From Acidobacteriota bacterium (GTDB lineage: Bacteria; Acidobacteriota; Blastocatellia; RBC074), in contig JADJLO010000034.1 in NCBI GenBank assembly GCA_016710075.1, forward strand, positions 13,484-77,483: a stretch of DNA of 64,000 nucleotides. Reading direction: 5' to 3'. The notes beneath the pieces were generated by a model. The model saw only the letters and a list, made by a program, of their open reading frames with translations, did not search any database and had not been told where the DNA came from. Every line of letters starts with the position of its first letter. Position 1 is the first letter of the stretch. A program made the position numbers and the translations under genes. Below, piece by piece: positions 15,103 to 52,215 of this stretch.

Positions 15103-15430
15103 AGTCCAAAGTCAGGAGTTTAAAGTCTAAAGTTCAAAGTCTAAAGTCCGGATTTTAAAGTCCAAAGTCCAGGCGCAGGCGTCCCGGCTGCGTCAATTCG
15201 ATTAACGCAAGTCTGATATGAATGTGCGGATATTTCAATACAAGCAGGCGGGACGCCTGCGTACCCACTCGTATTTTTGGCGTTCTTGGCCCTCTTGGCG
15301 TTCCTGGCGATAAAATAATTTCTTAACCACAAAATCCGTTAGTTTCAGAAACTATAAACTTTAAACTTTGGACTTTAGACTTTGAACTTTAAACTTTGAA
15401 CTTTGAACTTTAAACTTGTATTCTCGATCT
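15095..15430. repeat. composite intergenic element: ~10 direct AAAGTYY heptamers - ~170-bp core with 19-bp inverted repeat (CGCAGGCGTCCCGGCTGCG / CGCAGGCGGGACGCCTGCG) - ~10 inverted heptamers (RAACTTT)
   Basis: Read directly: AAAGTCCAAAGTCCAAAGTCA...AAAGTCCAGG | core | AAACTATAAACTTTAAACTTTGGACTTT...AAACTTG. The core also holds the 30-mer TTAACCACAAAATCCGTTAGTTTCAGAAAC, which recurs in inverse at 61047-61076. Confidence 0.75.
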
Positions 15431-37512: not shown

Positions 37513-37628
37513 GCCTGTTTTCAATGATCCACGTATCATCGGTTCATGCTTTCAACTTTCCGCAACGGAGCTCATTCTTCTCGAACTTGACAGAGATGGC
37601 GCGGATCTGTAGTATGCGAATTTGCCGC

Positions 37629-37712
<84 letters not shown>

Positions 37713-37721
37713 TTATCCCAA

Positions 37722-37757
37722 AGAGGGCGACCGACATTATCCGGTCGCCCTTTTTGC
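37722..37757 (+). terminator. intrinsic terminator after tRNA-Leu
   Basis: AGGGCGACCG-(loop)-CGGTCGCCCTTTTTG. Confidence 0.6.
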
Positions 37758-37759
37758 AT

Positions 37760-37860
37760 GGGAAGTTTAAAGTTTAAAGTTTAAAGTTCAAGGTTTAAAG
37801 TTTAAAGTTCAAGGTTTAAAGTAGCAGGCTCAAGCGTCTCGCTTGCGCTCCAACTCGTTC
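37760..37860. repeat. tandem heptamer array (TTTAAAGT x ~8) followed by GCAGGCTCAAGCGTCTCGCTTGCGCTCCAACTCG hairpin unit
   Basis: GTTTAAAGTTTAAAGTTTAAAGTTCAAGGTTTAAAGTTTAAAGTTCAAGGTTTAAAGT then the hairpin-plus-...ACTCG unit also seen at 15240, 41878, 47882 and 58138. Confidence 0.7.
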
Positions 37861-37886
37861 ACCCATGTCCCGATTAGCTTTAATTT

Positions 37887-39125
37887 ATGAGCAAATTTGA
37901 CGCCTATTCTGCGCTGCGAGTCCGGGATTTCCGCTTTTTTCTTGCGGGGCATCTCATCTCTGTGCTCGGGGTACAGATGCAGACGGTGGCCGTCGGATGG
38001 GAGCTTTACGAAAAGACATCTTCTGCCATGGCGCTGGGACTGGTCGGGTTGATCCAGGTCATTCCGATGCTCGGGCTTGCGCTTCCCGCCGGGCAGTTGG
38101 CCGACAAGTTCGACCGTCGAAAAATCCTGATGTCGGCGACCGTTCTGGCTTCAATCAGTGGGTTCGGACTTGCTGTGGTATCTCTGACCGGTGGCTCTGC
38201 AAAGATGATCTTTGCCTTTCTTTTGCTCAGCGGGATAGGCAGGGCGTTTCAGGGGCCGGCGAGATCGTCATTGATGCCTCAGCTCGTTCCGCTGCCGGTT
38301 TTCGGCAATGCCGTCAGATGGGCGATCGGCGGGTTCGAGCTCAGTTCGATGATCGGCCCGGCGCTTGGAGGCCTGACCATTGCAATGATGAAAAGCGCAT
38401 CCAGTGTCTATATTTTCTCCGGTTTTGCCAGTATCTTCTATTTTCTGATGCTTTCTTTGCTGAGCAAGAGATCATATACGGCTGAGAAGAAAGCTCTAAC
38501 CGAAATAAAATCGAGTCTGAGATCGCTGATAGCCGGTTTCGGTTACGTCTGGAAAACCCGGATTCTCTTTGCGGCGATGTCGCTCGATCTGTTTGCAGTG
38601 CTTTTCGGAGGCGCAGTAGCTCTGCTTCCGGTCTATGCAAAAGACATTCTCGCCGTGGGCCCCACTGGACTCGGCTGGCTCCAGGCAGCGCCGTCGCTGG
38701 GAGCAGTTACAATGGCCCTGCTGACGACTCACCTCCCACCATTCAAAAAAGCCGGCAGGGCGCTGCTGATCTCGGTAGTCGGCTTCGGCATCGCAACAAT
38801 AGTCTTCGGTATCTCCAGAAATTTCATGCTCTCGATTGTCATGTTGTTCCTGACGGGAGCTTTCGATAATATCAGCGTCATTATCCGGCAAACCCTGATG
38901 ACGTTGCTGACGCCGGATGAGATGCGCGGACGGGTTTCAGCCGTCAACGGGATGTTCATCAATGCCTCGAATGAACTTGGGAGATTCGAGTCAGGCTCTA
39001 TCGCATTCCTGTTCGGGCCTGTGGTATCGGTCGTCAGCGGTGGCATCGGCACGATTATAGTCGTCACACTCATTGCCCTGCTTTCACCTCAACTGCGTGA
39101 ATACGGTGAGCTGGAAGGTAAGTGA
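37887..39125 (+). CDS. MFS transporter (12 TM)
   Basis: Hydrophobic throughout; MFS motif between TM2 and TM3 (GQLADKFDRRK). Confidence 0.8.
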   Translation: MSKFDAYSALRVRDFRFFLAGHLISVLGVQMQTVAVGWELYEKTSSAMALGLVGLIQVIPMLGLALPAGQLADKFDRRKILMSATVLASISGFGLAVVSLTGGSAKMIFAFLLLSGIGRAFQGPARSSLMPQLVPLPVFGNAVRWAIGGFELSSMIGPALGGLTIAMMKSASSVYIFSGFASIFYFLMLSLLSKRSYTAEKKALTEIKSSLRSLIAGFGYVWKTRILFAAMSLDLFAVLFGGAVALLPVYAKDILAVGPTGLGWLQAAPSLGAVTMALLTTHLPPFKKAGRALLISVVGFGIATIVFGISRNFMLSIVMLFLTGAFDNISVIIRQTLMTLLTPDEMRGRVSAVNGMFINASNELGRFESGSIAFLFGPVVSVVSGGIGTIIVVTLIALLSPQLREYGELEGK

Positions 39126-39133
39126 AGAAGGAG

Positions 39134-39228
39134 AAAAGAGATTACGAAACAGAGATGAAAATGTTTATTCACTGATTAATCATTTTCGTCTGTTTCGTTT
39201 TTTTCGTCTGTTTCGTAATCTGTTTTGA
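39134..39228. repeat. MITE/BIME-like element, GATTACGAAACAGACGAAA family
   Basis: GATTACGAAACAGAGATGAAAATG ... TTTTCGTCTGTTTCGTTTTTTTCGTCTGTTTCGTAATCTG. Confidence 0.7.
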
Positions 39229-39254
39229 GACGGTTTCGGAATCCGGATAAATCT

Positions 39255-40532
<1,278 letters not shown>

Positions 40533-40561
40533 AAAAAATAAAACTGACGAGTCAAAAGAGT

Positions 40562-41800
40562 ATGAAAAATAAACCCGTAGTATCTACAACCGAAATCAGA
40601 TCTCATTTCCCCGCGCTGGAACGCAAACACAATGGATTTCCCGTGGCCTATTTCGATGGTCCCGGTGGCACTCAGACGCCACGCCAGGTCGCTGAGGCGA
40701 TGAGCGAGTATCTTTTCCATCATAACGCCAACACACACTGGGAATATCCTACCAGCGCCGAAACGGACGAACTGCTGCTGGATGCGCGCCGGACGATGGC
40801 CGAATTTTTCAACTGCCGGGCTGATGAAGTCTCGTTCGGCGCGAACATGACGACGATCACTTTTCATATCGCACGCGCCCTCGGCCGCCGATTCAACCCC
40901 GGCGATGAGATCGTGGTCACAGAGCTCGACCACCACGGCAACGTAGCCCCCTGGCTCGATATGGCGCGCGAGCGCGGCCTGACCGTCCGGACCGTCCGGA
41001 TGCTGACCGAAACCGGACAGCTCGACTGGGATGACCTGGCAGAGTCAATCAATCGCAACACGAAACTGCTGGCCATCGGCGCGGCATCAAATGCGCTGGG
41101 AACAATCAACGATATCCAGCGGGCTGTTCGTATGGCTCACGACGCGGGGGCCCTGGCTTATGTCGACGCTGTCCATTACGCCCCGCACAACCTCGTCGAT
41201 GTCCGTGATCTCGAATGCGACTTCCTGGCCTGCTCGGCTTACAAATTTTATGGCCCACACATCGGCGTTCTTTATGGCAGACACGATCTGATCGAATCGC
41301 TCGACGTGCCGAAACTCGAACCCGCTCCGAACGAAGCCCCCGACCGCCTCGAAACCGGCACTCAGAACCACGAAGGCATCGTTGGCGCAGCCGCAGCCGT
41401 CAAATTCCTGGCATCGTTCGCCGAGGGGAACACGCTTCGAGAAAAGCTGCAAAACTCATACTCGGCCCTCCACGATCGCGGCATGTCGCTGCTCACAAGA
41501 CTCTGGCACGGCCTTAATTCGATCGATGGAGTGACCGTTTACGGCCCCGACCCGAGCCAGCCAAGGACTCCGACCATTTCATTCACATACAAAGAAATCC
41601 CCTCGGTCGAAATAACCAGGCACCTCGTCAAACTCGGCGTCTTCGCATCCCACGGAGATTTCTACGCCCAGACGGTCATCGAAAGACTCGGCAAGGTCGA
41701 TCAGGGCCTGCTCCGTGTAGGCTGCTCCTGCTACTCAACCGAAGAGGAAATTGACAGACTGCTCGAAGGCGTCCGTGACTTCGCCCGGAATTCGAAGTAG
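40562..41800 (+). CDS. class-V aminotransferase-fold PLP enzyme (cysteine desulfurase-like)
   Basis: PLP-Lys context SAYKFYGPHIGVLYG; ~410 aa typical of the SufS/CsdA-like fold. Confidence 0.8.
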   Translation: MKNKPVVSTTEIRSHFPALERKHNGFPVAYFDGPGGTQTPRQVAEAMSEYLFHHNANTHWEYPTSAETDELLLDARRTMAEFFNCRADEVSFGANMTTITFHIARALGRRFNPGDEIVVTELDHHGNVAPWLDMARERGLTVRTVRMLTETGQLDWDDLAESINRNTKLLAIGAASNALGTINDIQRAVRMAHDAGALAYVDAVHYAPHNLVDVRDLECDFLACSAYKFYGPHIGVLYGRHDLIESLDVPKLEPAPNEAPDRLETGTQNHEGIVGAAAAVKFLASFAEGNTLREKLQNSYSALHDRGMSLLTRLWHGLNSIDGVTVYGPDPSQPRTPTISFTYKEIPSVEITRHLVKLGVFASHGDFYAQTVIERLGKVDQGLLRVGCSCYSTEEEIDRLLEGVRDFARNSK

Positions 41801-41805
41801 ATGAG

Positions 41806-41920
41806 AGCGCAGGCGTCTCGCCTGCCGGAATTCAATACTCGAACCCTGGCCATCGAATAGGCTACGATTGAATTCAAGCAGGCGGGGCGCCTGCGGTCCC
41901 ACTCGCTTGTCACTGTTTGT
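41806..41920. repeat. hairpin-repeat element (GCGCAGGCGTCTCGCCTGC - 52 bp - CAGGCGGGGCGCCTGCGGTCCCACTCGCTTGTCACTGTTTGTC); left boundary of the Rhs/TA block
   Basis: The right arm plus tail (43 bp) is 100% identical to 47882-47924. Confidence 0.8.
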
Positions 41921-41967
41921 CGTGTCCCTTCGGTAAGGCGTCTTGACACTGGCATACCGAGATCCCG

Positions 41968-42225
41968 TTAAACACGCCGGTCAGTTTCTCTAATGTGTCT
42001 CTTTCGGTAAGCCGGTGAAATCTGGACTGGATCCTCGCGTCTGATCCATTCCAGTTTACTGAGTTTCTGACAGGCTGCATCCTCAACTCCGCCCATCAGA
42101 ACTTCATCCCACACCGCGGAGGGCACAAGTATTTCGCGAAAGAGTTGGGGCAATAATCCTTCCTGTCCGCTTTTGCAAAGTGTGATCAGCGGAGAGGCAT
42201 TGATTACTGCACGTTCATTGAACAA
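41968..42225 (-). CDS. DUF3368 (PIN-like) toxin, 3'-truncated (~85 of ~150 aa)
   Basis: VINASPLITLCKSGQEGLLPQLFREILVPSAVWDEV matches the DUF3368 N-terminus; the ORF ends early, beside the repeat element. Confidence 0.6.
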   Translation of the reverse strand: MFNERAVINASPLITLCKSGQEGLLPQLFREILVPSAVWDEVLMGGVEDAACQKLSKLEWIRREDPVQISPAYRKRHIRETDRRV

Positions 42226-42469
42226 CTTTCAGCTCCTGATCTATTTCCTCTGCCGAATATTGGAAAGGTGACACCTCAAAGCGTGAAAGGGCTTCAATGA
42301 ATTCGGCCCGGCTGAGACCCGCTATTTCGGCAGCTTTCCCTTGGGAGACCCTGCCTACTTCATACCATTTGACGGCGGCGGCGATGCGCATCTCCTTCAC
42401 GAATTCGTCTGGCGCGTATCTCAATGCCGAAAAGACACTGTCTGGTAACTGAACCGATATCGTTGTCAT
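42215..42469 (-). CDS. UPF0175-family antitoxin
   Basis: VKWYEVGRVSQGKAAEIAGLSRAEFIEALSRFEVSPF; partner of the DUF3368 toxin; genes overlap. Confidence 0.65.
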   Translation of the reverse strand: MTTISVQLPDSVFSALRYAPDEFVKEMRIAAAVKWYEVGRVSQGKAAEIAGLSRAEFIEALSRFEVSPFQYSAEEIDQELKVVQ

Positions 42470-42471
42470 TT

Positions 42472-44140
<1,669 letters not shown>

Positions 44141-44269
44141 AATATCTTGTCATCAAATGCGAAAAAGGCAGCTAATGTCGCCTGATTGAGACCCCTGTTT
44201 TCGCCAATTTCAAGCTGGCTATAATTTTCAAGGAGCTATGATACGGTTGCCCTGTTTCAAACGCCCGCA

Positions 44270-44821
44270 TTATTGACCCACTGAGCCAGATTTCAGTATT
44301 TCATCAGTTGAAACCTCAACGACGTTTCCGCTCTTAACTATGAAATAAGTCATATGACTATTGGCATTGTAGCTTGGGGCAGAAATGCTATAGTACTTTC
44401 CGTCAAGCAACTGAGGCGGTTTGACATTGTCACGGGGGTATACCTGCCTGAACCCATGTGGAATTTCGCCATAAATTATTGTTGGTAAGTCAGGAATTCT
44501 CTTTCCCCTTCCAGGATCGAGTTGCCAAATTGTGCGATTTTCCCCAATTACTTGCTTTATCTTCAATAACTCTTCGTTGGTTACTATTTTGTCCGCTACA
44601 CCCACTACAAGCTTCACCTCGTCAAGTGAATATGGGCCCGAAACATACATCTGAGCAAGGATCCCATTGCCAGAAAAGGTGAGTTTAGGCGGGTTATCTT
44701 TGGTGACCCTCACCTTGGTGTCTATTTCACACCCTACGAGCATTGCCATCGAAAGCAAGGTCAGTAGCACAGCCGCTTTTCTAGTGACCATGTTATTTAT
44801 TATATTCATCCCGTTTCTCAT
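44270..44821 (-). CDS. lipoprotein, putative immunity protein for Rhs toxin cassette B
   Basis: Lipobox MLVGC. Paralogous to 45734..46156 (CxxEIDTK-R-...NPP-F-SG-G...SGPY...YG..P.GF.Q...EGKYY). Sits 14 nt after the toxin stop. Confidence 0.55.
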   Translation of the reverse strand: MRNGMNIINNMVTRKAAVLLTLLSMAMLVGCEIDTKVRVTKDNPPKLTFSGNGILAQMYVSGPYSLDEVKLVVGVADKIVTNEELLKIKQVIGENRTIWQLDPGRGKRIPDLPTIIYGEIPHGFRQVYPRDNVKPPQLLDGKYYSISAPSYNANSHMTYFIVKSGNVVEVSTDEILKSGSVGQ

Positions 44822-44834
44822 TTTTTCATATGCT

Positions 44835-45695
44835 TCATCTGTGCCCCACGACTATGCGCGTGCAAGGATGGAATGCTTTTATTGGAATCCCGAATAACCA
44901 TGATGCAACAAAATTCGAAAAGTGCCTTGCACCACCTGGTTTTGCTTCCTCCCAGTGTAGGCTAAACCTAACAGGACCGGCAATATCTGGATTAAAGTTT
45001 TTCCCAGGCCGCCCCATTGAAAAATGATACCATTCCCCGTTGTACTGTTTTCTGTAATCGTTATCTCCCCAGTGATCGAGATGGGGATCATTTGAGAACC
45101 GCTCCCATCCATTTACTTTTACCCTACCCTCAAAATCGCTAAAGCTTCCTGAGTTGGTTATCCTATAAGTGTGTGCATTTTCAATCCAATTATGTGCCAC
45201 TCCGATTGGATTGAGGAGTTGATTATAAATCCCGTTGGGGCCAATGGCTTGATCCCAAGGAGGTTCTCCACAGGGTTGATTTTTCTCTTGCTGATTCTGC
45301 ATATCACCCTGTTGCCCTCCTCCACCGCCACCACCTCCTCCACCACCGACATCACCCCCTCCGCCACTCCCTCTACCATTGTAATTGAAGTAGAGATACC
45401 ACAAGAACCTTAGATAATCCGCTCCAACATAAGACGGATTATCAGGTGGGCTGGAGGGAGGAATTGCCAGGAATAGCCCGGTAGGATCCGTGAAATTCAC
45501 CGGATCATTCCCGACATAGCTGTAGAGGTTCAGGCTCTGTGGATTGGCGGCATCAGCCGCCCCTAGTCCCAGCGGGTCCGCCTGCATGAACCTCCCTGAT
45601 TGTGATGGTAGAACCTCGCGTTGGCGTAATCCAGGTTTGTCGCCCAGTTCCACTCGTATCCGGTGAACTTCCTACTGTTGAGATAAGCTGGGTTT
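44835..45695 (-). CDS. orphan Rhs C-terminal tip + polymorphic toxin domain B (unassigned Cys/His-rich domain); 1-nt frameshift near 45590-45600
   Basis: ...AYLNSRKFTGYEWNWATNLDYANARFYHHNQG (one frame) then RFMQADPLGLGAADAANPQSLNLYSYVGNDPVNFTDPTGLF (DPxGL core end), then a Gly-rich linker and a CT domain with C..P.W, HWG, YNGEWYHFSMGRP. Confidence 0.65.
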
Positions 45696-45733
45696 ATGCA
45701 ATGTATGCAAAATTCGAGATTCCCTGTGCCAAA

Positions 45734-46156
45734 TTACTCTCTTTTAACTTCAACTGCGACATTGTTTTGGATTTTAAAGGCTGTAAAACCTGAACGTGCG
45801 CCGTGGACATAAACGAAAATAGTGTAATATTTTCCTTCCTCAAGAGGTATAGGTTGTCCTTGTTGAGGAAATTGCTGAGAGAAGCCTGATGGAAGAGAAC
45901 CATATGTAATAGGTATTAGCCTCCATACCGGCAGATCCGTCATTCCTGTGATTTCCCATAAACGCAAAGACTCAATGTTATTTAAGTTAGTGTATGGTCC
46001 GCTCATATGAATGTAAGGACAACAACCTGTGCCTGACAACTTAAATGTCGGCGGGTTTTTATTGTCAATCAGTCTAATCTTCGTATCGATCTCAAAAGTA
46101 CAGGCGCCTATTAAGAGTAATGCGATAACGATATTCAAAAACATATGCTTTCGCAT
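45734..46156 (-). CDS. lipoprotein, putative immunity protein for Rhs toxin cassette A
   Basis: MRKHMFLNIVIALLLIGAC lipobox; paralogue of 44270..44821. Confidence 0.55.
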   Translation of the reverse strand: MRKHMFLNIVIALLLIGACTFEIDTKIRLIDNKNPPTFKLSGTGCCPYIHMSGPYTNLNNIESLRLWEITGMTDLPVWRLIPITYGSLPSGFSQQFPQQGQPIPLEEGKYYTIFVYVHGARSGFTAFKIQNNVAVEVKRE

Positions 46157-46219
46157 AAAAACTATAGATAGTTTATCCATTCTTGCACTATTACTATTGA
46201 ATAGCATAGATCTGATTCC

Positions 46220-47865
46220 TCAAAATGGTCGCCTATACCAGGCACCCACAGGTGAAAACACATTTTTGTCCCACCAGTCTTTTGCGTGTTCTCTTGAAGA
46301 TGGTTGAAATAGTTGCTCGCAGTGAATGTCCAACCAGGACGGTGGTGAAGATGATAGCCAAGGTCGTCCGATTGTTAAGTGAAACCACATTCCATTATAG
46401 TAGTGCTCAAAGTCAGGTCCTCCCCAATGCGGAGGATTGATATTTATATAATGCTCCCATCCATTTCCAAGAGCCTTTTGGATTACTGAATAGTATGAGT
46501 TTGGTTTCCCTTTTGGTACTACTTGCCATTCATTATCCTTTATCGCATAGCTAAATCCTAAAGGATCTAAAACCATATTAAATGCTTTGACGGCTTCATC
46601 CCATTTAGGTGAATCGGGCCTACATTTTGACTTGACAGGTGGTTTATTCTGGTTTGGTGTCGCCGGATTTTGCTCCTCACCGCCACCACCTCCTCCGCCA
46701 CCAACATCACCCCACCAGCCGCCGGAAGTGTTCCACCCCCAATGCCAGCCCCATCCAAAACCAAATTCAGCTCCAACATACGACGGGTTATCAGGTGGGC
46801 TGGAGGGAGGAATTGCCAGGAATAGCCCGGTAGGATCCGTGAAATTCACCGGATCATTCCCGACATAGCTGTAGAGGTTCAGGCTCTGTGGATTGGCGGC
46901 ATCAGCCGCCCCTAGTCCCAGCGGGTCAGGCTGCATAAATCTGGCTCGGTTGTGATGGTAGGTTCGAGCATTAGCATCATCCAGATTCGTTGCCCAGTTG
47001 CGCTCATAGCCCGTGAACTTCTTGCTGTTCAGATAAGTCCCGCCCGGAGCCACTTCCAGCAGTGTCTGCCCGTGAGGATCGAACTCTCCGCGATAGGTCA
47101 CATTCCCATTCACATCTGTCAACTTCCGTCCGCTGCCCAGATGATCCGAATGTACCCAGTAGAATTGCGAATCATAGCTCAGCAGCCCAAGCGACTGTCC
47201 GCTCGGCCCGTAGACATAGGCTCGATACACACCTCCGGTCGTAGCTTCTACAACTGGCTGCCCCAGCACGCTCGACCAGATGTAATACAGATTCCCGTAC
47301 CCGCCCGTGTTCTGTACTACCTTCCGCCCGTCGCCGTCATAACCGTAGGTATTGCCGACGGCTCCTGCCGCCGTCAGCCGGTTCGCCGCGTCATAAGTAT
47401 AATTCCAGCCGCTGCCCGAAGTCATATTGCCGGCATTGTCATAGGCGAACCCCGTGTTGTTGATCCGGTTGGTCGATGGCGCTCCGCTCGCGTTCGTCGC
47501 ATAGCTCAAGCTATAGCTGCCCGTCTCGCCGCCTCTGCTTGCCGTCACCCCGGTCAGGTTCCCCTCACCCGGATAGGTCGTCAGGATGCCCACACCGGGA
47601 GCGGCGATGTGCACCTGTGTCGCGCTCCAGTTGGAGAAATTCGCCAACTGGTCGACATTCGTTTTCGCGGCCGCGGTGATCAGGTTTGAGGCTGAATAAC
47701 CCGCCGGATAGTAAGGTTTGGTCGAAATATCCTGCCCGTCGTTTCCCGCCGAGGCGACAACCAGCGTGCCTTTCGTCGACGCCCGATTGACGTCATCGAG
47801 CAGGGCTTGTGAAAACGCATTCACTCCGAAATCGATTGAGCCTCACCTGGCTGTGGAATTACAGC
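46220..47865 (-). CDS. chimeric protein: subtilisin (S8) fragment - Rhs C-terminal core/tip - polymorphic toxin domain A
   Basis: N-terminus GSIDFGVNAFSQALLDDVNRASTKGTLVVASAGNDG...FSNWSATQVHIAAPG (S8 region up to, but not including, the catalytic Ser). It switches at GNLTGVTAS into Rhs repeats, ...YLNSKKFTGYERNW...RFMQPDPLGLG...DPTGLF, then CT domain A (C..P.W, NGWEHY, PHWGG, YNGMWFHLTIGRP). Confidence 0.7.
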
Positions 47866-47874
47866 AGTTGATGA

Positions 47875-47925
47875 TTCCAGGCAGGCGGGGCGCCTGCGGT
47901 CCCACTCGCTTGTCACTGTTTGTCT
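47875..47925. repeat. half-copy of the 41806-41920 hairpin-repeat element; right boundary of the Rhs/TA block, abutting the tex stop
   Basis: CAGGCGGGGCGCCTGCGGTCCCACTCGCTTGTCACTGTTTGTC is identical to 41878-41920. The S8 fragment reading frame begins right after a TGA beside it. Confidence 0.8.
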
Positions 47926-47926
47926 G

Positions 47927-50338
47927 TTACTTCGATTCCTTGTCCTTCTTGTCCATCAACGAGGCGAAGGGGTTATTGAAGGCCTTGTTGGCGGGTGGGC
48001 GTGGCTGTTGTTTGTTTTGTGGTTTGGGCCCCCTGCGGTCGTCCTTTTGTTTCTTCTGTGAATCATGGCCTTCGGGCTGCTGTTTGAGCCGTTCTTCCTT
48101 CCTGGCTTCCGGATCGGACTTCATTGAGAGGGCGATCTGGTTCTTGTCGAGATTTACCTCGATGACGCGGACTTTGACATGGTCGCCGGGGTTGACGACA
48201 TCGCGCGGTTCCTTGATGAAGCGGTTGCTTAATTGTGAGATGTGAACGAGGCCGTCCTGGTGGACTCCGATATCGACGAAAGCGCCGAAATTGGTGACAT
48301 TGGTTACTATGCCGGGACAGATCATACCGGGTTTGAGATCGGCGACTTCGTGGATGTCGTCGCGGTAGGCGAATGCGGCGAACTCCTCGCGCGGATCGCG
48401 GCCGGGTTTTTCGAGTTCACGGACGATGTCGTCGAAGGTGAATTCGCCAATCTCCTGGCGCAGCGATTGAGCCTCTTTGACGTAATGAACACCCGGGCCA
48501 AGCAGATCCGGGATATTCTTGCCGAGCTGCGAGGCGAGGTTTTGGAGGAACGGATACCGTTCCGGATGGACTCCGGTGTTATCAAGCGGGTTGTCACCGC
48601 CGGCAATTCTCAGGAAGCCGGCAGCCTGTTCGAAAGTCTTCTTGCTGAACCTGGGAATTTCGACCAGTTGTTCGCGCGATTTGAAGAGGCCCTTTTGAGA
48701 TCTGTGCTCGACGATCTTCTTTGCCAGCGCCGGCCCGATGCCCGCGACGCGCGAGAGCAGGTGATACGAAGCCGTGTTGAGATTGACCCCTACGGAGTTG
48801 ACGCAGGTGTCGACGACCAGATCGAGGCTCTTCTTGAGCGACGCCTGATTGACGTCGTGCTGGTACTGGCCGACTCCGATGCTCTTGGGATCGGTTTTGA
48901 CGAGTTCCGCCAGCGGATCCTGCAACCTGCGTGCGATCGAGATTGCACCGCGCACGGTCAGATCCAGGTCCGGAAACTCTTCGCGGGCAACTTCGCTTGC
49001 GCTGTAAATGCTCGCGCCGGATTCGTTAACCATGACCACGGGGACGTCCAGATTCGCGGCTTTTAAAGCTTCGCGGATGAAGCTTTCGGTTTCGCGACCG
49101 GCCGTGCCGTTGCCGACTGCCACAGCGCGGATTGCGCTTGTCCCAACAACTTCAGCCAGAATCTTTGCGGACTTCTCCTGATCGGTTTTGCTCTGAAGAT
49201 ACATCACACCGCTGGCGACGTATTTTCCGGAATCATCGACGACGGCGAGCTTGCATCCGGTGCGGATTCCAGGGTCGACGCCCAGAACAGCCTTCGGCCC
49301 GTAGGGGGACGACAGCAAAAGCTTCCTGACGTTTTCAGCAAAGACTTTAATGGCGGCCTCGTCGGCGATGTCCTTTAACGCCCTGTGGACTTCCGTGTCG
49401 ATGCTCGGCGAGACGTAAACTTTGAGTGCCAGCTTCGCCGATCTGAGCAGCACTTCCGCGCCGGGAGAATCGGAAATTGTGCAGGAGGCATTCTCGAAAG
49501 CCTTCAAAAGAATCTCGTCGAAATCCGTGTCTTCAGGCGCTGCGCCGAGAGTCAGGACAAGCTCTTCCTCCATCCATCCGCGCCGCATCGCCAGATAACG
49601 GTGAGAATTCTGTGGCTGCATCAATGAAGTCACTGGCTCGAAGTATTCAAAATAACGTTCGTATTTGCTGTTGGGTTTGGCCTTATCGCCTGTTTTGGTG
49701 ACTACGGCACCGCGTTCGAAAGAGAGGCGCCTGACGGTTTCGCGAAGCTCGGCCGTCTCGCTGAGCTTTTCAATCAGGATATCCTGGGCTCCCTGAATCG
49801 CCGAGGCGGCATCAGTGATTCCCTTCTCTTCATTGAGGAAGCCGGCAGCAAACGATTCCAGGGTCTGTCCCGGTTCAGCCGTGATCTCTCCGTGGCCGCA
49901 TGCCCAGATCCAGTCTGCCAGCGGTTCGAGGCCGGCCTCTTTCGCCATTGTCGCTTTGGTCTTTCGCTTCTGTTTGTATGGCAGATAGAGGTCTTCGAGC
50001 TGTTCGAGATTGAAGGTAATCTCGATCTTCGCCTTCAGTTCCGGGGTGAGTTTGCCCTGGCGCTCGATCTCTTCGAGGATGAAAGCCTGACGCTTGACGA
50101 TCTCATTCCCTTTCTCATCGGCATCGATCACCTGCTGGATCATTACTTCATCGAGATTGCCAGTCTGCTCTTTACGGTATCTGGCGATGAACGGGACCGT
50201 CCCTCCTTCCGCCACCAGAGCCAGCACTGCGGCAGCCGATTTGACGGCAATGCCCGGATAATTTGCCTGAAACCATGTTTCGAAATTCACACTTACTCCT
50301 CTCAACAAACGAACAATTCGAAGCGCGCATAGTGCCAC
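47927..50338 (-). CDS. tex: Tex-like transcription accessory protein (YqgF/RNase H-like, HhH, S1 domains)
   Basis: ...EGGTVPFIARYRKEQTGNLDE N-terminal signature and a C-terminal S1 domain. The N-terminal ~15 aa of the ORF may be an over-extension. Confidence 0.85.
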   Translation of the reverse strand: MALCALRIVRLLRGVSVNFETWFQANYPGIAVKSAAAVLALVAEGGTVPFIARYRKEQTGNLDEVMIQQVIDADEKGNEIVKRQAFILEEIERQGKLTPELKAKIEITFNLEQLEDLYLPYKQKRKTKATMAKEAGLEPLADWIWACGHGEITAEPGQTLESFAAGFLNEEKGITDAASAIQGAQDILIEKLSETAELRETVRRLSFERGAVVTKTGDKAKPNSKYERYFEYFEPVTSLMQPQNSHRYLAMRRGWMEEELVLTLGAAPEDTDFDEILLKAFENASCTISDSPGAEVLLRSAKLALKVYVSPSIDTEVHRALKDIADEAAIKVFAENVRKLLLSSPYGPKAVLGVDPGIRTGCKLAVVDDSGKYVASGVMYLQSKTDQEKSAKILAEVVGTSAIRAVAVGNGTAGRETESFIREALKAANLDVPVVMVNESGASIYSASEVAREEFPDLDLTVRGAISIARRLQDPLAELVKTDPKSIGVGQYQHDVNQASLKKSLDLVVDTCVNSVGVNLNTASYHLLSRVAGIGPALAKKIVEHRSQKGLFKSREQLVEIPRFSKKTFEQAAGFLRIAGGDNPLDNTGVHPERYPFLQNLASQLGKNIPDLLGPGVHYVKEAQSLRQEIGEFTFDDIVRELEKPGRDPREEFAAFAYRDDIHEVADLKPGMICPGIVTNVTNFGAFVDIGVHQDGLVHISQLSNRFIKEPRDVVNPGDHVKVRVIEVNLDKNQIALSMKSDPEARKEERLKQQPEGHDSQKKQKDDRRGPKPQNKQQPRPPANKAFNNPFASLMDKKDKESK

Positions 50339-50439
50339 GTCCGGTCAATCAAGGCAACTACAAGCTGTTGGTCAAATTAAACATCCCTATGATAGTCTTT
50401 AATTCGCGAGCTTTTACTTATATTTAACTGATGCTACGC

Positions 50440-50745
50440 AAATAAGTATTTTTGGATTGGGTTGGCCCCCCCTTTTTAAATAAAACAAACGGCGGAGGCG
50501 GGGGGGGGGGGGGCCCGGGGGGGGGGGGGGGGGGGGGGGGGGGACCCCGGGGAAACCGAGAAAAATAAAAAAAAAAACCCGAGGCCCCGGGGGGGGGAAA
50601 AAAAAAAATTGGGGGGCCAGTTTGGGGGCGCGTTCCGTGGGCGGGGCGGTTCCGGGGGCCGGGAAATACGGGTTGGGGGTCCCGGGGGGCCGCCCTCGGT
50701 TCTTCACCGGCGGGCCACCCGCGCTGGCTGTCAACAAAAGAAATC
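50440..50745. other. low-complexity poly-G / poly-C / poly-A tract, probable sequencing or assembly artefact
   Basis: Runs such as G14, then CCC, then G26..., A11, G9, with no coding potential other than Pro/Gly homopolymers. Confidence 0.6.
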
Positions 50746-50833
50746 GTGCGTAACATCAGTATTTAATTTGAAATACCCCCACTGGAGCATACTGAGATCG
50801 AAGGATTTTAGCTAAAAAAGAAAAGAGGGTTTT

Positions 50834-52039: not shown

Positions 52040-52215
52040 AAGGAAAGAAGGAAAGAAAGATTACGAAACAGACGAAAAAGAACCAATGGGTGAAGCTTAC
52101 TTTATCGTTCTGAAGTATGTGTGACTGATAATTCTCAAACGATCATACATCTAAATTTTCGTCTGTTTCGTTTATTCCGTTTGTTTCGTAATCTATCCCC
52201 CCTGTTTCGTAATCT
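52040..52215. repeat. MITE/BIME-like element, GATTACGAAACAGACGAAA family (with duplicated right arm)
   Basis: GATTACGAAACAGACGAAAAAGAACC ... TTTTCGTCTGTTTCGTTTATTCCGTTTGTTTCGTAATCTATCCCCCCTGTTTCGTAATCTATCCCCC. Confidence 0.7.

Follow-up and report, generated by a model that had tools for sequence, protein, structure and literature searches.

A subtilase-Rhs hybrid reading frame in a Blastocatellia bacterium is probably the wreck of a Sec-exported polymorphic toxin gene

How does an open reading frame (ORF) come to begin in the middle of a peptidase and to end in an Rhs toxin tip? The question is raised by a 534-residue ORF at 46220-47824 of a 64,000-nucleotide stretch of DNA, hereafter the window, taken from contig JADJLO010000034.1 (positions 13,484 to 77,483) of the Acidobacteriota bacterium assembly GCA_016710075.1, whose lineage belongs to the Blastocatellia. 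A first-pass annotation of the window described a subtilisin (S8) fragment fused in frame to the C-terminal core of an Rhs protein. It proposed that homologous recombination at a repeat of about 240 bp had replaced the 5' part of the toxin gene by unrelated peptidase DNA. We find instead that the ORF is very probably the wreck of a Sec-exported subtilase-Rhs polymorphic toxin gene, and not a fusion of unrelated DNA. The locus is a decayed toxin/immunity locus of a known kind: a subtilase-bearing, Sec-dependent Rhs toxin in an orphan array.

The first ~90 residues are, as annotated, the middle of a subtilase. Residues 8-105 of the ORF match positions 133-234 of the 288-position Pfam Peptidase_S8 profile at 29.7 bits (gathering cut-off 21.8, E 5e-7), which establishes homology to the family. 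The stretch lies between the catalytic His and the catalytic Ser: the oxyanion-hole motif SAGN is kept, Asp, His and Ser are all absent, and the DTG, HGT and GTSAA motifs fall outside the fragment, which is thus short of the complete catalytic domain of an active subtilase. The S8 domain of P0270, a full-length relative described below, spans residues 186-446, of which the window fragment covers 313-399 only. The frame does open right after a stop codon beside a boundary repeat (Table 1), and the 5' truncation point of the S8-Rhs gene falls at ~47846 (+/- 5 nt). The repeat has a near-perfect core of 45 nt with one mismatch, not the 43 bp first given, and can be aligned over 53 nt at 94% or over 64 nt at 90.6% with a gap. 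The absence of a plausible start or secretion signal was confirmed. A GGAG directly abuts the GTG at 47824 without a spacer, hence there is no spaced ribosome-binding site; the N-terminus of the product (VNAFSQALLDDVNRAS) is not a signal peptide, and an N-terminal delivery region with signal peptide or pro-domain is absent. A promoter and terminator scan was uninformative, its counts being near those of shuffled sequences.

The switch to Rhs sequence lies where it had been placed, at ...TTYPGEG/NLTGVTAS, near 47564-47566. The Rhs core left in the ORF amounts to ~250 aa (P0270 residues 1708-1955), against ~1,300-1,400 aa in intact relatives, and is thus too short for a toxin-enclosing shell; Pfam RHS and RHS_repeat scores stay under their cut-offs. 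The core end PxxxxDPxGL is present as YSYVGNDPVNFTDPTGL and is followed by a 200-aa region in which the ORF diverges from its relatives.

A 94-aa translation containing the S8 fragment was searched exhaustively against 1.84 billion representative proteins, which gave 19,158 matches at E <= 0.001. Two of them, P0001 and P0121, carry the same fusion and were set aside; the best of the others were P0129 (70%, 1,272 aa) and P0132 (66%, 1,474 aa). In both proteins RHS repeats follow the S8 domain ~1,000 aa further on, and the C-terminal ends match the Rhs fragments of the window. Over the 92-aa fragment itself, identity was 70% to P0129, 68% to P0132 and 66% to P0270. An Rhs shell was found in 14 of the 15 relatives at least 60% identical to the fragment. 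The peptidase DNA is therefore not unrelated to Rhs, its nearest relatives being S8-Rhs proteins. Moreover, both the S8 piece (70.5%) and a separate Rhs fragment of the locus, core1, have P0129 as their nearest relative; the first ~110 aa of core1 align with the C-terminal end of P0129 at 74.5% identity. The frameshifted twin P0121 was the sole match when the 94-aa fragment was used in a word-indexed search. In the P0129 gene (L005 9245-10001) the S8 domain is interrupted, after ...GYTDDI and before GWNF, by an in-frame TAG, which separates the signal peptide, pro-domain and Asp motif from the rest and marks either a pseudogene or a sequencing error.

A second search, seeded with P0132, revealed more than 100 proteins of ~2,000-2,200 aa with Fervidolysin-NPro, Peptidase_S8, RHS_repeat and YD-shell domains, all from Blastocatellia, Pyrinomonadaceae or Acidobacteriota wherever the source names an organism. 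This family is common among soil-dwelling Blastocatellia and in Pyrinomonadaceae; its architecture comprises a signal peptide, a fervidolysin-like pro-domain, the S8 domain, a Gly-rich linker, ~1,300 aa of Rhs/YD shell, DPxGL and a variable toxin, with a small gene downstream. P0270 and P0273 are full-length members with signal peptide, pro-domain and complete Asp/His/Ser triad, and the C-terminus of P0273 is a Tox-WTIP domain. Intact loci stand alone among housekeeping genes, with one small gene after them, and no type VI secretion system (T6SS), VgrG or PAAR gene was found within 10 kb. Among Sec-exported RHS polymorphic toxins, subtilisin/S8 is an already catalogued processing protease (Zhang et al. 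2012, PMC3482391); no experimental study of the Acidobacteriota S8-Rhs family was found in the literature searched.

The pieces of the locus map colinearly onto P0270 (Table 1), and the S8 piece, core pieces, DPxGL, variable toxin and downstream small gene keep the order seen in the intact Blastocatellia/Pyrinomonadaceae S8-Rhs genes (P0270 and P0273; class in PMC3482391). From this colinearity, and from P0129 being nearest to both pieces, the ORF is an S8-Rhs gene without residues 1-308 and ~400-1707, that is, without signal peptide, pro-domain, triad and about three quarters of the shell. The first-pass view that the toxin cassette at the end of the ORF (cassette A) lacks its delivery parts was borne out: signal peptide, pro-domain, catalytic S8 domain and most of the Rhs shell are all missing. 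Since only ~250 aa of shell remain and those other parts are gone, the product can be neither exported nor wrapped around a toxin.

Two losses probably account for this state. A 5' truncation took away roughly the first 308 aa. In addition, an internal deletion of ~1,300 aa (~3.9 kb) cut the S8 domain ~10 residues short of its catalytic Ser and fused it to the final ~250 aa of the Rhs core. The junction codons are CCG GGT GAG GGG AAC CTG in the window and AAC TGG GGG AAC CTG in H2, the second copy of the duplicated core segment; the S8 domain of P0129 reads CCT GGC GGG AAT TAT at the homologous place. Both sides plausibly carried GGGGAAC in the same codon phase, and a microhomology-mediated deletion there would account for the in-frame join. 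The deletion may have been confined to a single gene or have involved two copies of such a gene. P0065 (942 aa), from a Blastocatellia metagenome-assembled genome (MAG; L002), is likewise a 5'-truncated S8 fragment joined to an Rhs C-terminal part. It joins P0270 residues 120-258 to 1336-1957, keeps the Asp and His motifs and ends in a different toxin, and as an independent chimera with other breakpoints it shows that such decay recurs in the S8-Rhs family.

The same junction was found in other assemblies. P0001, 99% identical to the ORF, lies on a 1.9-Mb contig of GCA_963852515.1 (L001) in the same gene order; L001 and the window are ~98% identical across 21 kb, and the junction is identical. 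The Logan assembly of run SRR27448540 (L003) shares the succession of Tex gene, boundary repeat, S8 fragment and Rhs core. Its junction G-run has 5 G versus 4, whereby the S8 piece is confined to a 128-aa ORF, apart from the reading frame of the Rhs-toxin part. The in-frame state of the fusion is thus not conserved, and the extra G of L003 would be a later slip. Phase variation at this G-run was considered and rejected, a tract of 4-5 G being too short. A hotspot shared with L107 was also rejected, the break there being another event: at L107 1424-1556, in another genome, a related orphan Rhs cassette is broken up, ~15 nt past the point homologous to the junction (on its downstream side), by a ~130-nt palindromic element resembling a miniature inverted-repeat transposable element, which has terminal inverted repeats of ~23 nt and is apparently flanked by an 8-bp target duplication (GACAACCG).

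Relative to L003, the S8 fragment plus H1 (the copy of the duplicated segment inside the ORF) has 7 non-synonymous and 2 synonymous changes, versus 3 and 9 in core2, CT-A and ImmA (Fisher p = 0.03). These counts fit an unconstrained 5' part and a 3' cassette that may be constrained now or was so recently. Relative to L001, the 5.9-kb block between the boundary repeats (41950-47870) has 17 differences (0.3%), versus 2-4% in the flanks (37600-41900 and 48000-50427). The 3' end of Tex and R2 mark abrupt steps in divergence, and the block is about tenfold less diverged than its flanks. The differences are clustered, with 7 in the third core fragment and 5 in H1 plus the junction: four lie within 29 nt of H1 (47508-47536) and seven within 116 nt of the third fragment (42579-42694), six of the latter being synonymous. 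The clusters resemble patches of gene conversion whose donor would be an Rhs paralogue beyond the window, and the low divergence suggests that the block has recently been shared between strains; strain mixing in metagenome assemblies is an alternative source of the latter.

Downstream of the Rhs core the locus holds two toxin cassettes. On the minus strand the order is Tex, R1, S8 fragment, H1, core end, CT-A (C-terminal toxin A), ImmA, core tip with CT-B, ImmB, core1+H2, filler, third core fragment, UPF0175, 85-aa ORF and R2. Cassettes A and B share core homology over 176 nt at 96% and 88 nt at 77%. CT-A (46220-46660) and CT-B (44838-45290) are 35% identical and belong to one toxin family, in which the motifs HWGxxD, WxH..GRP, HxE and H are invariant; the domain gave neither a Pfam match nor a significant fold match in the PDB. 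The same family occurs in orphan arrays of L003 and L107. A small gene follows each toxin tip, and relatives of ImmA and ImmB adjoin related toxins in L003 and L107. Both proteins have lipoprotein-type signal sequences (LIGAC in ImmA, LVGC in ImmB), and immunity by predicted lipoproteins suggests a periplasmic target for the toxins. In the window, the core tip of cassette B has a -1 frameshift relative to L001 in the G-run at 45596 (CAGGGAGG versus CAGGGGAGG), which could be a real mutation or a homopolymer sequencing error.

The repeat on which the first-pass model rested is present. The two copies (H1 and H2) align over 237 nt without gaps at 97.9% identity, with 5 mismatches where about 10 had been counted; a single difference is fixed between them, so both come from one allele. 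This repeat and the boundary repeat are far beyond chance (0 matches expected from shuffles). In favour of the idea that unrelated peptidase DNA came in by homologous recombination at this hotspot, both ends of the repeat coincide with breakpoints, and the four strain-specific differences clustered in H1 suggest recombination there. Yet any two overlapping truncated copies yield a repeat bounded by breakpoints, the S8 fragment is most like the S8 domains of S8-Rhs proteins, and the S8 side has no homology to Rhs at the junction, so the join was illegitimate and not a product of homologous recombination. We regard this origin as highly improbable. Rhs pieces have been scrambled at the locus, as the first-pass annotation held, but nothing marks the repeat as the site that created the fusion: it is the overlap of a 5'-truncated and a 3'-truncated copy, and the junction does not stem from it. 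The simplest route to the repeat would be that a local duplication came first and deletions after it, duplication being a known intermediate in Rhs loci (PMC7043789), with integration of a circular intermediate as an alternative to tandem duplication and deletions. The clustered changes in H1 suggest that the repeat undergoes gene conversion. The junction might also be an assembly artefact, an S8 gene and an Rhs gene having been brought together through a collapsed or chimeric repeat: Rhs repeats are assembly hazards, and a homopolymer-rich stretch of the window (50428-50759), missing from L001, arouses suspicion. With the Tex-R1-S8-Rhs junction in three independent assemblies of different records, each surrounded by strain-level differences, we hold mis-assembly to be very unlikely.

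More room is left for a remnant of the same origin that is still active, with its toxin tips expressed from internal starts as toxin-antitoxin-like modules or kept as a silent reservoir for switching toxins with a full-length gene. For Salmonella orphan Rhs either role has been demonstrated (PMC7043789 and references therein), the changes in core2, CT-A and ImmA are mostly synonymous, and the conversion-like patches in H1 and the third core fragment imply exchange with an unseen paralogue. Against a toxin-antitoxin-like role, both immunity proteins look like exported lipoproteins, unable to neutralise a cytoplasmic toxin. No protein at least 90% identical across the duplicated segment and core2 turned up in a database that holds the L001 proteins, so that a close full-length partner is not evident, and no convincing promoter or ribosome-binding site was found. 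On balance an active remnant appears unlikely. The reading of the ORF as the wreck of a subtilase-Rhs toxin gene also has points weighing against it. No near-identical intact parent was found: the best S8 relative is 70% identical, and a metagenome scan gave at most 52%. Single-gene origin therefore rests on family architecture and not on a direct ancestor, and the S8 piece could have come from another S8-Rhs paralogue than the Rhs piece. Two of the three strains keep an intact ORF, in frame; the difference between 4 and 5 G sits in a homopolymer, where a sequencing error in one assembly is possible. The substitution counts against L003 are small. Finally, CT-A and ImmA look constrained, and there may be some expression from an internal start.

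What would the decayed locus still do? The two cassettes of toxin tip and lipoprotein immunity remain intact, and the immunity genes most likely still protect against the intact toxins of relatives. Between the core fragments and an Rhs gene beyond the window, short patches may still be exchanged. A further, doubtful proposal is that the 5.9-kb block, lacking an integrase of its own, passes from strain to strain at the hairpin repeat near Tex and carries immunity genes and silent toxin tips. The Rhs-core tracts, including the 237-bp segment, would then be the places where crossovers with a full-length S8-Rhs gene elsewhere in the genome switch toxins. The tenfold drop in divergence exactly between the repeats and the conversion-like patches in H1 and the third fragment are compatible with such mobility.

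Enterobacterial orphan Rhs-CT/immunity arrays (Poole et al. 2011, PMC3150448; Koskiniemi et al. 2014, PMC3967940) resemble the window locus in their tandem tip/immunity cassettes with core homology, in the absence of a delivery domain and in the evidence for recombination between core repeats. Unlike them, the window array adjoins no full-length main gene and has core-only fragments downstream of the cassettes. Its parent family is stand-alone, Sec-exported S8-Rhs and not linked to T6SS by PAAR or VgrG, and its immunity proteins are predicted lipoproteins.

Table 1. Features of the locus, in minus-strand order, with the matching residues of P0270.
Feature	Position	Strand	P0270 residues	Remarks
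Tex gene	47927-50338	minus		
Boundary repeat R1	47872-47934			begins 2 nt past Tex stop codon; hairpin GCAGGCG-CCCC-GCCTGC
In-frame TGA opening the S8 frame	47843-47845	minus		28 nt from R1
S8 peptidase fragment (92 aa)	47567-47842	minus	313-399	first possible start GTG 47824
Peptidase-Rhs hybrid ORF	46220-47824	minus		GTG start, 534 aa
H1, duplicated Rhs core segment	47328-47564	minus	1708-1785	5' edge is the S8/Rhs deletion junction (GGGGAAC)
Core2, last Rhs core part	46823-47327	minus	1787-1955	ends at conserved NDPVNFTDPTGL, DPTGL at 46837-46823
CT-A, Gly-rich linker and C-terminal toxin domain (140 aa)	46220-46822	minus		motifs HWGxxD, WxH..GRP, HxE, H
ImmA, candidate immunity protein	45734-46207	minus		predicted lipoprotein (MRKHMFLNIVIALLLIGAC); identical in L001
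Orphan cassette B, Rhs core tip and toxin CT-B	44835-45687	minus	1913-1958 (tip)	tip 88.6% identical to 46767-47037
ImmB	44270-44821	minus		predicted lipoprotein, lipobox LVGC; ImmA paralogue
Core1+H2 Rhs fragment	43020-44130	minus	1414-1790	both ends cut; H2 (43020-43256) is the 3' end
AT-rich filler (65 nt)	42955-43019	minus		after break at ...YGYDGDG
Third, more divergent Rhs core fragment	42472-42954	minus	~1707-1837	3' end cut; 7 clustered differences vs L001
UPF0175 antitoxin gene (42215-42469) and 85-aa ORF	41968-42469	minus		ORF overlaps UPF0175 stop
Boundary repeat R2	41869-41932			direct repeat of R1; adjoins convergent aminotransferase gene 40562-41800

At the edges of the block, a weaker likeness of R1 to the R2 flank extends to ~47845. 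The 85-aa ORF (41968-42225) has no Pfam match and resembles a 3'-truncated partner toxin of the UPF0175 antitoxin; as it is apparently truncated, the block has truncated genes at both ends. Signals of an integrase-type genomic island were looked for: direct repeats flank the block, no integrase ORF or domain was found among its ORFs, nor any tRNA gene or Rfam match. A tblastn search of the window with the S8 fragment yielded no second S8 gene and no full-length Rhs gene. The boundary repeat's hairpin core recurs a third time at 15244-15268 (GCAGGCGGGACGCCTGCGTACCCAC, 3 mismatches), so the repeat may belong to a small dispersed family. A scan of a genome collection with Tex did not retrieve this species; the best match was a Blastocatellia MAG whose Tex is 76% identical and in which a gene for a TonB-like outer-membrane protein lies between Tex and the aminotransferase gene.

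Some further observations concern the rest of the window. A dispersed 39-nt intergenic repeat (AGATTACGAAACAGACGAAATAAACGAAACAAACGAAAA) occurs in at least 7 copies on both strands (at 1081, 7987, 8103, 34210, 39183, 52156 and 54904), and its copy number differs from L001 near 52071-52190. The homopolymer-rich stretch mentioned above measures 333 nt and includes runs of G27, G14 and G9 and two of A11; in L001 position 50427 joins 50760 directly, and the stretch suggests an artefact of assembly or sequencing, or else a hypervariable insert of low complexity. A hypervariable patch at 37750-37999, upstream of and across the start of a major facilitator superfamily transporter gene, has 38 differences from L001 in 250 nt, along with many indels.

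These results correct a misreading: the peptidase-Rhs hybrid did not arise by exon-shuffling from unrelated genes but through the decay of a native subtilase-Rhs toxin. In annotation, the appropriate label for such ORFs is pseudogene or orphan module, not peptidase. The remnant contributes a toxin domain with predicted lipoprotein immunity and without a match in Pfam or among solved structures, and it brings into view an extensive family of S8-Rhs toxins in Acidobacteriota that stand alone and are Sec-exported.

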